64,000 bases of DNA. Source: Candidatus Multivoradales bacterium. Its GTDB lineage: Bacteria > Acidobacteriota > Thermoanaerobaculia > Multivoradales > JAHEKO01. This document shows positions 3,041-22,937 of the stretch, piece after piece. Under the pieces are notes generated by a model, which was given only the letters and a program-made list of their open reading frames with translations, ran no database searches and had not been told where the DNA came from. Numbering within the stretch: the first letter of the stretch is position 1; each line of letters starts with the position of its first letter. The translations under genes and the position numbers were made by a program. The DNA lies in assembly GCA_965248055.1 (NCBI GenBank), contig CBDFIJ010000004.1:1376001-1440000 (forward strand). The letters are read 5' to 3'.

Positions 3041-3148
3041 CTCCCCTAAGTGCCAGATGAGATGAGTCGGTCGGTCTCCAAGCTGGGACAATGTGCCAGT
3101 TTGGATCAACCAAAGAAATCGGCATCTAGCCGAGAAAGGAGACCGACC

Positions 3149-4162
3149 ATGGAGTATCTTGGCATTGACGTTCACTCAAAGTACAGCGAGGTATGTGGGA
3201 TATCTCAGGAGGGTGAGGTGACGGTTCGTCGTCGGATTTCGACGACGGAGACGTCGATCCGTGGGTTCTTCGGTTCTCGTGAGCGTGCACAAGTGACGCT
3301 GGAGAGCGGTCCGGTGACGCCGTGGGTATATCGGTTGCTGTGTGATCTAGGTCATGCGGTAACGGTAGTCAATCCCCGGCGAGTGCGTTTGATTGCCGAA
3401 TCGACACTAAAGACCGACGGCATTGATGCCGAGGTTTTAGCTCGGCTGAGCCGATTAGACCTGGGGTTTCTGCGTCCGGTGTATCAGCGAAGCCCTGAGG
3501 CCCAGGAGCTTCGCACTCGTTTACGGGTGCGATCGGCTCTGGTTAAGTCTCGGACTTCGTTGATCAACGCGGTACGTGGGACTCTGCGTGCTCAGGGCTA
3601 CCGGATGCCTTCGTGTGCGGCCAAGATTTTCATGGTGCGTTACGAATCGATGGGATTCGATTCGGGAGTATCAGAGGCCCTGGCTCCCTTGGTATCGACG
3701 ATCGGTGAGCTGTCGGATCGGATCTGTGAGCTAGAGAATGACCTGAAAGCTCAAGCAAGTACCGATGAGCTTCTCGTTCGTCTGCAGACAGTGCCCGGGG
3801 TAGGGCCTCTGGTGAGCTTGGCTTTTGCCGGCTGGGTAGACAATCCAGATCGGTTTCAAAAGAGTCGAGATGTTGGAGCATGCCTGGGCTTGAGGCCCTC
3901 GCTTCGCAGCTCAGGAGGGCATGAGATCCGTGGCCGGATCACTCGGGAGGGGGATAGCGAGATGCGCCGACTCCTGGTCCAGGCTGCGCATGCATCTTTA
4001 CAGTGTCACAAGGACTCAGCGCTCAAGCGCTGGGGTGAGGGTTTGGTGGCAAGGCTAGGTAAGAGCAAAGCAGTGGTAGCGCTGGCTAGAAAGATCGGAG
4101 TCCTACTGCATAGGTTGTGGGTCACAAACGAGAATTTCCAGCCGTTTCCACAAGCCACATAA
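3149..4162 (+). CDS. IS110-family DEDD transposase/recombinase
   Basis: YLGIDVH, LESG, KTDGIDA, TVPGVG, GLRPSLRSSG (catalytic Ser), AVVALARK; RBS aaggag before ATG 3149. Confidence 0.93.
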   Translation: MEYLGIDVHSKYSEVCGISQEGEVTVRRRISTTETSIRGFFGSRERAQVTLESGPVTPWVYRLLCDLGHAVTVVNPRRVRLIAESTLKTDGIDAEVLARLSRLDLGFLRPVYQRSPEAQELRTRLRVRSALVKSRTSLINAVRGTLRAQGYRMPSCAAKIFMVRYESMGFDSGVSEALAPLVSTIGELSDRICELENDLKAQASTDELLVRLQTVPGVGPLVSLAFAGWVDNPDRFQKSRDVGACLGLRPSLRSSGGHEIRGRITREGDSEMRRLLVQAAHASLQCHKDSALKRWGEGLVARLGKSKAVVALARKIGVLLHRLWVTNENFQPFPQAT

Positions 4163-4421
4163 GCGAGGATTCGAAGTAAGAAAGCAAGAGAAATCAGTCA
4201 TGAGTTTCAAAGGACGGATGAAAAGTTTCGATGACTCCGATAAATGGGTTGGAGGCTGGGACTCCGCGTGCCAGATGGGAGCATCGAATTTCCTCAACAG
4301 ACGGAAAACTCACCATGCACCGGTCCAAAGACGGACCCAAGAGAGTGCGAATAGAAGCTCGTCCTGAGGTTAGATCCGAATCTAAAGAACGCATGATCGA
4401 TGGAAAGAAAACCCTTGACTG
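4163..4421 (+). ncRNA. Putative bridge/seek RNA of the IS1111 element (boundaries approximate)
   Basis: Non-coding region downstream of the transposase. Contains gtgccag (4268-4274, equals left target flank + core), atagaag (4351-4357, equals IS right end + core) and atct (4380-4383, reverse complement of core + IS left end). Confidence 0.7.
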
Positions 4422-4486
4422 GACCGCCCGACTCATAGAAGCCGATTACTTGCAAGGTTGGGAACCTACGTTGCGTCTCCATTCCT

Positions 4487-5374
4487 ATGAGCCGCCGACT
4501 TCGATTCATCCCACCCGGTGGGGCGCTGGTAGAAATCACCTGCCGTACCTTTCAAGGGCGTTACCTCCTCAAGCCGTCTCCCGCTGTCAATCGGTGCATC
4601 CTGGGGATTCTCGGGCGGGCTCAGAGACTCTACCCCACCGAGGTCCATGCCTTTGTATTCATGTCGAATCACTACCATCTCTTGGTCTCAGTACCCGACG
4701 CTCAGCGCATGGCGCAATTCGTCGGCTACCTCAACAGCAATCTGGGACGCGAGTTGGGCAGAATGCATGGATGGAACGGGAAGTTTTGGGATCGCCGTTA
4801 TCAGGCCATCGTAGTCAGCGAAGAGGAAGCGGCTCAAGTGGCTCGACTTAAATACCTGTTGAGCCAAGGAGTCAAAGAGCGCTTAGTTAGACGTCCCACT
4901 GACTGGCCAGGTCTCCATGCTGCCAAGATCCTCCTGGCTAGTAATAGCACGATCACAGGCCGCTGGCGCGACCGAACACGCGAGTACCACGCCAGAGGAG
5001 CAGGCAATACGCAGGTATTTATGTGTATCGAACGACTCCACCTAACGCCCCTTCCATGTTGGCGTGATCAAACTACGCTTTGGATGCGACAACGAGTTCA
5101 AGAACTCGTCGACCTAGTCTGTGAAGAGAATTCCGGCCAAATCGTTGGAGATCCGCCCAATCCCAAACCCACCAAGCGTCCTGCCAGAATCAAGAGATCC
5201 CCAGTTCCACTTTTTCACTGTGCCACCAAGGCAGCCCGCAAAGCACTCTACGAAGCCTACTCCTGGTTTGTTGCCGCCTACAGGGATGCTTGTGAGCGAC
5301 TCAAAGCTGGGCACGAAAACGCCACCTTCCCTCCGGGATCGTTCCCACCGCCCAGACCATTCGTTCCTGTCTAG
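4487..5374 (+). CDS. RAYT-like HUH/Y1 transposase (IS200-like superfamily)
   Basis: N-terminal MSRRLR..EITCRT, HAFVFMSNHYHLLV (HUH), GKFWDRRY, KY catalytic Tyr candidate, DWPGLH; Pro-rich C-terminal extension. Confidence 0.88.
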   Translation: MSRRLRFIPPGGALVEITCRTFQGRYLLKPSPAVNRCILGILGRAQRLYPTEVHAFVFMSNHYHLLVSVPDAQRMAQFVGYLNSNLGRELGRMHGWNGKFWDRRYQAIVVSEEEAAQVARLKYLLSQGVKERLVRRPTDWPGLHAAKILLASNSTITGRWRDRTREYHARGAGNTQVFMCIERLHLTPLPCWRDQTTLWMRQRVQELVDLVCEENSGQIVGDPPNPKPTKRPARIKRSPVPLFHCATKAARKALYEAYSWFVAAYRDACERLKAGHENATFPPGSFPPPRPFVPV

Positions 5375-21785: not shown

Positions 21786-22937
21786 TCCCCTAAGTGCCAG
21801 CTGATTATTTGCAAGGTTGGGAACCTACGTTGCGTCTCTATCCCCATGAGCCGCCGACTTCGATTCATCCCAGCCGGTGGGGCGCTGGTAGAAATCACCT
21901 GCCGTACCTTTCAAGGGCGTTACCTCCTCAAGCCGTCTCCCGCTGTCAATCGGTGCATCCTGGGGATTCTCGGGCGGGCTCAGAGACTCTACCCCACCGA
22001 GGTCCATGCCTTTGTATTCATGTCGAATCACTACCATCTCTTGGTCTCAGTACCCGACGCTCAGCGCATGGCGCAATTCGTCGGCTACCTCAACAGCAAT
22101 CTGGGACGCGAGTTGGGCAGAATGCATGGATGGAACGGGAAGTTTTGGGATCGCCGTTATCAGGCCATCGTAGTCAGCGAAGAGGAAGCGGCTCAAGTGG
22201 CTCGACTTAAATACCTGTTGAGCCAAGGAGTCAAAGAGGGCTTAGTTAGACGTCCCACTGACTGGCCAGGTCTCCATGCTGCCAAGTTACTCCTGGCAAG
22301 AAATAGCACGATCACAGGCCGCTGGCGCGACCGAACACGCGAGTACCACGCCAGAGGAGCAGGCAATACGCAGGTATTTATGTGTATCGAACGACTCCAC
22401 CTAACGCCCCTTCCATGTTGGCGTGATCAAACTACGCTTTGGATGCGACAACGAGTTCAAGAACTCGTCGACCTAGTCTGTGAAGAGAATTCCGGCCAAA
22501 TCGTTGGAGATCCGCCCAATCCCAAACCCACCAAGCGTCCTGCCAGAATCAAGAGATCCCCAGTTCCACTTTTTCACTGTGCCACCAAGGCAGCTCGCAA
22601 CGCCCTCTACGAAGCCTACTCCTGGTTTGTTGCCGCCTACAGGAATGCTTGTGAGCGACTCAAAGCTGGGCACGAAAACGCCGCCTTCCCTCCGGGATCG
22701 TTTCCACCGCCCAGACCATTCGTTCCTGTTTAGTTGATTCCGTTCCGTTTGGGTTTTATCGGCGCTTAGGGATTGGTATATCCAGTCCGAGTTTCTCCCC
22801 GTCCAAGAGCTAAACCGCTGAGTGAAAGTTCCGTTTCGGCGTGAATGAGATCACGAACTTGACGTGTTCAAGATAGCCGTGATCAGCCCAATCAAAGAAT
22901 CCTAGATTCTCTCAATAATCGCCTGGAACCTCAGTCC
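21786..22937 (+). mobile_element. Complete RAYT-like module, copy 2
   Basis: Left end ctcccctaagtgccagctgattatt and right end aataatcgcctggaacctcagtc form an imperfect inverted pair. Confidence 0.85.
21846..22733 (+). CDS. RAYT-like HUH/Y1 transposase, copy 2
   Basis: 295 aa, a few substitutions relative to 4487-5374. Confidence 0.88.
   Translation: MSRRLRFIPAGGALVEITCRTFQGRYLLKPSPAVNRCILGILGRAQRLYPTEVHAFVFMSNHYHLLVSVPDAQRMAQFVGYLNSNLGRELGRMHGWNGKFWDRRYQAIVVSEEEAAQVARLKYLLSQGVKEGLVRRPTDWPGLHAAKLLLARNSTITGRWRDRTREYHARGAGNTQVFMCIERLHLTPLPCWRDQTTLWMRQRVQELVDLVCEENSGQIVGDPPNPKPTKRPARIKRSPVPLFHCATKAARNALYEAYSWFVAAYRNACERLKAGHENAAFPPGSFPPPRPFVPV

Follow-up and report, generated by a model that had tools for sequence, protein, structure and literature searches.

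What directs a mobile element into one particular short repeat, and to a fixed position within it? The question is raised by a stretch of 64,000 nucleotides (nt) from Candidatus Multivoradales bacterium (contig CBDFIJ010000004.1, positions 1,376,001 to 1,440,000; the whole stretch is hereafter termed the window), in which an insertion sequence (IS) of the IS1111 group separates the two halves of a short motif in front of a gene for a Y1 transposase. RNA-guided targeting by IS110/IS1111 elements is established, as set out in parts of two reports (PMC11187229, PMC11208160), and an earlier interpretation made from the letters alone (the sequence-only reading) had proposed that this IS is programmed against the motif by guide segments in its 3′ non-coding region. 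The boundaries, the copies, their flanks and the covariation among relatives make it probable that the element is intact, was recently active and is placed in Y1-element end motifs by a two-module guide RNA.

The insertion and the element

The IS spans 1385 bp at positions 3057–4441 (+ strand of the window), its limits being given by an empty allele and by three further copies of 99.9–100% identity. It cuts the target GTGCCAG/CCGATTA (here and below a slash marks the insertion point) into a left half GTGCCAG (3050–3056, +), the same 7 nt being found directly left of all four copies with a left end, and a right half CCGATTACTTGCAAGG (4442–4457, +), delimited by sequence reading and by alignment with the empty site. 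The left junction reads ...cccctaaGTGCCAG/ATGAGATGAGTCGG with 3057 as the first IS base, the right junction ...CCGACTCATAGAAG/CCGATTACTTGCAAGG with 4441 as the last one. An uninterrupted paralogous allele, GTGCCAG/CTGATTATT, is located at 21794–21809 (+), 52 nt upstream of a second copy of the Y1 gene (21846–22733). When this empty site is aligned with both filled flanks, the flanks abut with zero duplicated bases, which indicates a clean insertion without target duplication and confirms the split site and the empty allele described by the sequence-only reading.

The element belongs to the IS1111 group of the IS110 family, as had been recognized before. Its sole long open reading frame (ORF; 3149–4162, +), with the ATG at 3149 as the best start, encodes a DEDD transposase of 337 amino acids (aa) carrying the Pfam domains PF01548 (DEDD_Tnp_IS110, E 3.7e-22) and PF02371 (Transposase_20, E 1.1e-19) and reaching, against a cutoff of 140, 236.9 bits with the NCBIfam model NF033542 (‘IS110 family RNA-guided transposase’). 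IS1111 transposases are described in parts of PMC11187229 as having 330–350 aa and a GL-P----S(T)G motif; the present protein lies inside this range and shows the motif as GLRPSLRSSG. The group is further characterized by subterminal inverted repeats of 7–17 bp set in from the ends, by a longer non-coding part downstream of the transposase gene and by site-specific insertion without target duplication, all of which are found here. The left end (3057–3077, +) is composed of a 7-nt terminal extension, ATGAGAT, and the repeat GAGTCGGTCGGTCT (3064–3077), the right end (4415–4441, +) of TTGAC (4415–4419), the repeat GGACCGCCCGACTC (4421–4434) and the terminal extension ATAGAAG (4435–4441). Both repeats are 14 nt long, lie 7 nt inside their ends and are complementary at 13/14 positions as counted by eye, a pattern search having found the pair at no more than 2 mismatches. 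The non-coding regions measure 92 nt on the 5′ and 279 nt on the 3′ side. The TTGAC box, which lies 22–26 nt inside the right end, shows no variation among 11/11 aligned relatives (CTTGAC columns) and might serve as the −35 box of a promoter that is assembled when the ends join in the circle, an arrangement described for other family members.

Proposed guide segments in the 3′ non-coding region

The three strings on which the sequence-only reading was built, GTGCCAG (4268–4274), ATAGAAG (4351–4357) and ATCT (4380–4383), are all present in the 3′ region, on the + strand of which chance alone would provide 0.02, 0.008 and about 1 of them, respectively. Shuffles of the whole window gave means of 10.35 (GTGCCAG) and 3.75 (ATAGAAG) matches per 128,000 strand positions, and GTGCCAG, seen 11 times against the expected 10.35, is not over-represented. 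The guide signal therefore resides in position and covariation, not in counts.

Four segments are proposed as guides. The left-target guide (4266–4277, +) contains GTGCCAG and then ATG, with which the left IS end begins. About 20 nt upstream lies the right-target guide strand GATAAATGGGTT (4239–4250, +), for which the sequence-only reading had offered no position. It complements the top strand at the right junction, and its aligned counterparts in relatives are the reverse complements of their own right junctions. The left-donor guide ATAGAAG (4351–4357, +) equals the last 7 nt of the IS, and a weak candidate for the right-donor guide consists of CTCA (4309–4312) followed by CCAT (in total 4309–4316, +) and tracks positions 2–5 of the left end. 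The resulting 5′→3′ order, right-target, left-target, (right-donor), left-donor, fits that of IS1111 seekRNAs as far as these are described in PMC11187229; it differs from the order left-target, left-donor, right-donor assumed by the sequence-only reading.

That former assignment would amount to an IS621-type layout with the left-target guide at 4268, the left-donor guide at 4351 and the right-donor guide at 4380–4383. All three strings exist, as stated, and the first two were rightly placed, since they covary with flank and IS end, respectively. However, ATCT, a 4-mer expected by chance, aligns with ACCC and ACCT in t1 and t2, two related sublineages introduced below which share the left end ATGAGATGAG with this IS, and the right-target guide stands 5′ of the left-target guide, which is the IS1111 order and the reverse of the IS110 order. 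We consider this layout very unlikely and reject ATCT as a right-donor guide. Two other candidates were also discarded. AAATCAG (4192–4198), the reverse complement of CTGATT, was tried as the right-target guide; its aligned positions differ between lineages and do not follow the targets. A third GTGCCAG, at 3093–3099 in the left non-coding end, is unchanged in t2, whose target is GTGACAG.

Covariation of guides and targets among relatives

Among 401 genomes of the class searched with the 3′ region, matches were obtained in 15, including G000, the genome of the window itself; a search with the single transposase protein yielded one close metagenome-assembled genome (MAG) and five distant matches which were not alignable. 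G024, the genome of another genus of the same family, harbors two IS sublineages, t1 and t2, both about 75% identical to the present IS (loci L002, L012, L017, L020, L021, L023, L025, L027 and L029). The t1 elements reside in sites reading GGTGCCAG or GGTTCCAG/CCTTT(C/T)CGC, the t2 elements, at seven loci, in GGTGACAG/GATAC. In the alignment of the 3′ regions GCGTGCCAGATGG, shared by this IS and t1, becomes GTGTGACAGATGG in t2, so that the left-target guide changes along with the target by the same C to A exchange in guide and flank; five further target classes agree. The right-target segment behaves correspondingly: that of t1, GAGAAAAGGGTT, is the reverse complement of the t1 right junction AACCCTTTTC over 10 nt, and that of t2, GAAAGTATCCTT, is the reverse complement of AAGGATAC(T). 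In one MAG assembly (16 loci, L030–L045) t2 is flanked on the left by GGTGACAG in 14/14 and on the right by a sequence starting with GATAC in 12/13 cases; this assembly contains the same lineages as G024 and is thus not independent of it. G024 also has 17 uninterrupted GGTGACAGGATAC sites compared to 0 for a control pattern, many of them arranged as inverted pairs 21–80 nt apart, and no homologue was found in this genome with the Y1 protein of G000 as query.

For a quantitative assessment the four segments were extracted by conserved anchors from 10 lineages with both junctions available, and the longest exact run between a guide and its own flank was compared with the runs against the flanks of other lineages in 20,000 permutations. 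The own mean run amounts to 7.2 versus 4.1 for the left-target guide (1/20,000 permutations as high) and to 7.1 versus 3.3 for the right-target guide (0/20,000). Two segments matching the two target strands, with the top-strand match 5′, are the hallmark of an IS1111 seekRNA, and both covariation and order reveal them here. Of guides to the two IS ends, the left-donor guide covaries with the right ends of the relatives (6.7 versus 5.3, p 0.006): two independent changes, ATGGAAG (G295, G378) and ATAGACG (G113), are mirrored in the respective right ends, one lineage (G350) having a single mismatch. For the candidate right-donor segment, which comprises only 4 nt, the effect is small (4.0 versus 3.4 in the 10 lineages). 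This position reads CCCA in three lineages with the left end xTGGG, ACCA with xTGGA, CCAA with xTTGT and CTCA with TGAG, and it lies 5′ of the second stem, where analogy with the target module would place a right-donor guide; the correspondence is at most suggestive.

The covariation extends to metagenomes. A scan for the exact right end of this IS gave 0 matches; when the core of the second module, which is conserved, was used instead, nine loci were obtained, seven of them assessable (L088 is without a right end and L093 without a target module in the locus). The right guide matches its flank in 10/11 positions in L085 and L087, 9/11 in L091 and 8/11 in L089, over 7 contiguous nt after a 1-nt shift in L090, over 6 contiguous nt in L092 and, in L086, at 5 of the 6 nt that precede the end of the contig. 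The right guide of L086 is itself the reverse complement of CCGATTCT, and L086 is therefore tuned exactly to the GTGCCAG/CCGATT form of the motif.

Predicted fold of the RNA

As the MAFFT alignment is not structure-aware in the variable hairpins, the relatives were folded separately, and a common two-module plan emerged in 12/12 relatives and in the present RNA. The target module is predicted as an internal loop which carries the two target guides on its strands around a variable hairpin. It is closed by an outer stem formed by TTCGATG, a bulged A and CTCC (4227–4238, +) pairing with GGAG and CATCGAA (4278–4288, +), and the inner hairpin GGAG-GCTGGGA-CTCC (4251–4265, +) between the guides becomes GGTG...CACC in t2 of G024. 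Compensatory variants of the outer stem occur in relatives, namely GGGCG/CGCCC, GGCCG/CGGCC and, in G295 and G378, CTGC/GCAG. The second module (4316–4349, +) consists of the stem TGCAC/GTGCG around the hairpin GGTCC-AAAGAC-GGACC; the stem is invariant, and the hairpin varies in sequence yet stays paired in 12/12 relatives. All guides are positioned in loop strands of the predicted fold.

Copies and flanks in the host genome

The blastn search of G000 (3.41 Mb) produced eight matches. Three are full copies, termed w (the window copy), B and C; a fourth, D, is truncated at IS position ~1253 by another multi-copy IS, and these four are mutually 99.9–100% identical. E and F are 3′ fragments of 96–97% identity, G and H diverged 3′ relics of 82–83%. 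In Logan contigs the depth of the IS is about 3.9 times that of its flanks (one sample), and loose ends of the IS correspond to the known alternative flanks only. The contigs of four runs (X1–X4) of one sample, a type of data that drops rare forms, contained no circle-junction contig and no empty-site joint.

The left flanks are uniform and the right flanks heterogeneous. Beside the shared ...CATAGAA[G/C] end, two of the five right flanks carry the CCGA(T/A)T half of the motif, with junctions reading CATAGAAG/CCGATTACTT in w and CATAGAAG/CCGAATATTC in E, and three carry CC(T/G)CTTTT, with CATAGAAC/CCTCTTTTTC in B and C and CATAGAAC/CCGCTTTTCT in F. B and C are not independent because they have a common right flank over 1864 nt. 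Together with this identical flank each forms a 3249-nt unit bounded by inverted GTGCCAG (contig C4 of G000, 2104283–2107530 and 1142300–1145547), the far end of which is the 5′ motif of a Y1 gene, and the outer flanks differ on both sides. It looks as if a Y1 element had moved with the IS as passenger, or as if two identical elements had been struck at the same spot. Within the shared flank lies a repeat of ~178 nt resembling a miniature inverted-repeat transposable element (2106039–2106216), which recurs with 93–99% identity in at least eight other places.

Further observations concern the truncated and the diverged copies. The left flank of D (C4 804823–804843) reads GTGCCAGTGCCAG, and the paralogous empty site (198649–198665) holds a single GTGCCAG, the TGCCAG being extra in D. 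The IS whose end truncates D (C4 806097–806450) is represented by 13 further copies of a 296-nt terminal segment, and 14 additional occurrences of its 57-nt tip were counted. The two 3′-only relics (C4 2189021–2189188, +, and 2181139–2181311, −) start exactly at the DNA of the internal left-target guide, GGTGCCAG/ATGGAGGC and GGTGACAG/ATGGAAGC, and have similar left flanks. A 10-nt direct repeat, GTGCCAGATG, is common to the left junction (3050–3059) and the guide DNA (4268–4277) and could be the source of such transposase-less 3′ derivatives, for which solo ssr9 and MITEPpu9 of ISPpu9 offer a comparison.

The Y1 genes and the target site family

The gene next to the insertion (4487–5374, +) encodes a protein of 295 aa with the Pfam domain PF01797 (Y1_Tnp, E 3.1e-9, 37.4 versus a cutoff of 23), which reaches only 51.4 bits on the NCBIfam model REP_Tyr_transpos (cutoff 80). 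Since the Pfam threshold is passed and the NCBIfam threshold for REP-associated tyrosine transposases (RAYTs; REP, repetitive extragenic palindromic) is not, the gene is best called that of a RAYT-like Y1 transposase. A tblastn search with this protein gave 16 matches in G000, 12 of which include the 5′ end of the gene; the genome possesses at least 12 such genes, with products of 279–295 aa which are 61–100% identical. At 12/12 of these 5′ ends (11 intact, one split by the present IS) the motif GT[GTA]CCA[GC]-C[CT]GA[AT]T is found about 52 nt upstream of the start codon, and the claim that the IS had entered a motif preceding Y1 genes thus holds. Exact GTGCCAG is present at 5/12, counting the split one, and the family comprises CCAC as well as CCAG forms. 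In the chromosome 53 matches to the motif were counted, as against 5–11 in each of ten shuffles, and they cluster near Y1 genes; the neighboring gene thus shows a feature by which RAYTs are recognized, a short repeat family that is dispersed in the genome and has members beside the gene.

Several IS copies are associated with this family. Copy w sits in a Y1 5′ motif, E has a family-type right half, D is 290 nt away from a motif, B and C are located at the far end of the 1864-nt segment which starts exactly at an inverted Y1 5′ motif, and F directly adjoins inverted motifs on the downstream side of a Y1 gene. When 1065 GTGCCA[GC] sites were compared with CCATTTATC, the 9 nt that the right guide would call for, no site fitted perfectly, one fitted in 7/9 and 16 in 6/9 positions; seven of these 17 best fits (at least 6/9) are family members (CCAAATATT five times, CCGAATATC twice), the family contributing only 31 of the 1065 sites. 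Judged from these positions the IS does exploit the site family, with a right guide that fits only loosely.

Evaluation of the model

Several points weigh against the proposed guide RNA and its targeting of the Y1-end motifs. The lineages compared are kin, for which reason the permutation figures overstate independence, and the segment registers were chosen from conserved anchors. The right-donor candidate extends over four positions with three states only. Guide and flank match less well on the left side in G020 and G113 and on the right side in G377 and in the window copy, and the right guide of this IS is a poor match to its own right flanks, the run being 3 nt in w and, by eye, 5 nt (AACCC) in B, C and F. 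The paralogous empty site of D, GTGCCAG/ACATTCC, lacks a family-type right half. The left-target and left-donor guides have AG as their last two bases, whereas the right guide would pair with AC. Finally, the fold energy of the single sequence is ordinary (z −1.6; 14/200 shuffles fold as well), and none of the Rfam families was recovered in the non-coding region; a single hit, Acido-Lenti-1, lies inside the ORF at chance level (E 0.43).

On the basis of this energy one might argue for a reading without any guide RNA, in which the internal copies of GTGCCAG and ATAGAAG would have arisen by chance or serve to bind a protein. This view is hardly tenable in face of the covariation between guides and flanks over six target classes, the compensatory stem changes and the experimental demonstration of the mechanism for family members reported in parts of PMC11187229. 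The support for the RNA derives from covariation and not from thermodynamics.

The poor right guide raises another alternative, in which the target is chosen almost wholly by the 7-nt left guide and 2–5 additional nt (GTGCCA[GC]CC), and the link to Y1 ends is incidental in that the motifs happen to contain GTGCCAG and the right guide is untuned to them. The heterogeneous right flanks, the empty site of D and the 3-nt run in w are in favor of such a scenario. However, GTGCCAG occurs 551 times in the genome and is followed by the family right half in only 19 uninterrupted copies, yet w and E reside in such sites; the positions of B/C and F relative to Y1 motifs, the share of family members among the best right-guide fits and the right guide of L086 likewise argue against it. 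We regard this alternative as possible, albeit doubtful. The earlier statement that the IS is programmed against the motif stands for the left half, which is matched exactly, and is weakened for the right half by the poor guide and by the 2/5 family-type flanks. Similarly, flanks of the form GTGCCAG-NNGATT had been suggested as a test for other insertions: the left part is present in all four copies, the right part only in w, as E reads CCGAAT and conforms to the family motif but not to NNGATT.

The disagreement about the core dinucleotide recurs beyond the window copy. A right guide complementary to AC is seen in this IS, t1, L085, L087, L089 and L090; at the right junction the letters are AAC in B, C, F, L012, L018, L085, L087, L089 and L090, but AAG is found in w, E, L002 and relic H. 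In the simple reading the right junction would keep the base of the target and the left junction that of the donor; both junctions are visible in two events only (B/C and L012). A more far-reaching proposal would regard the lineage as a specialized hyper-parasite of REP-like end motifs of Y1 elements whose guides co-diversify with these motifs across genera (GTGCCAG/CCGAWT here, GTGACAG/GATAC in G024 and GTTCCAG/CCACTTC in a metagenome). The AG/AC disagreement would then be deliberate, one RNA accepting the G and C variants of the motif and the right junction retaining the target base as AAG or AAC. We consider this extended proposal unlikely.

Mechanistic implications and comparison with known systems

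We propose that the 3′ non-coding region encodes a seekRNA or bridge-type RNA with two modules. In the target module (4227–4288), an internal loop presumably closed by an 11-bp stem, the 5′ strand (4239–4250) would recognize the top strand of the right target half by complementarity, and the 3′ strand (4266–4277) would correspond in sequence to the left half GTGCCAG. The second module (4309–4357) would present ATAGAAG, which repeats the right IS end, on its 3′ side and perhaps the weak left-end guide on its 5′ side. We infer that this RNA is transcribed, that it associates with the transposase and that the complex recombines the circular IS, by the strand-exchange chemistry of the family, with sites reading GTGCCA(G/C)CC..., thereby placing it in the GT[GTA]CCA[GC]-C[CT]GA[AT]T motifs that mark the ends of Y1 (RAYT-like) elements; an effect on the interrupted Y1 unit and its gene may follow.

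IS4321 and IS5075 are IS1111 members that reportedly target the ends of another transposon. The present IS likewise belongs to the IS1111 family and has its target at the end of another mobile element, the host being a Y1 (RAYT-like) unit with REP-like end motifs and not a Tn3-family transposon.

Close parallels exist to ISEc11, ISPa11, ISKpn4 and ISPst6, IS1111 elements with a 3′ seekRNA, for which passages of Siddiquee et al. 2024 (PMC11187229) describe the same transposase size and motif, subterminal inverted repeats, a long downstream non-coding region, two short matches to the target, of which that to the top strand lies 5′, and natural retargeting between close relatives. Unlike in these elements, the target here is GTGCCA[GC]CC..., the RNA is a predicted one and the guides differ at one core base (AG versus AC). 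With the IS621 bridge RNA, as portrayed in sections of Durrant et al. 2024 (PMC11208160), the RNA shares two modules, guides flanking internal loops and a core dinucleotide common to target and donor. In IS621, however, the left end carries the RNA and its left guide precedes the right one in the 5′→3′ direction, whereas here the RNA is encoded in the right end and the order is reversed. The donor module is also less clear than that of IS621, and a passage of the same paper remarks this for IS1111 orthologues. ISPpu9 and ISPpu10 of Pseudomonas putida, according to portions of Pares-Guillen et al. 2025 (PMC12288879), resemble the present IS in that they belong to the IS110 family, occupy a fixed position within REP sequences and have AG at the boundaries, and in that transposase-less derivatives with only the downstream RNA part are found elsewhere in the genome. 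In the present IS the downstream region holds the proposed guides.

Systems of this type, and their targeting of REP sequences or transposon ends, have been described before. The present element adds a fully annotated natural IS1111 guide RNA, with four guide positions proposed and three backed by covariation, and a natural retargeting series which includes two sublineages with different guides in one genome (GTGCCAG/CCTTTTC and GTGACAG/GATAC in G024). That the two target guides specify different core bases is an observation which engineers of these recombinases could test. For the host genome, the insertion explains the split motif in front of the first Y1 gene copy and independently marks GT[GTA]CCA[GC]-C[CT]GA[AT]T as a real repeat family.

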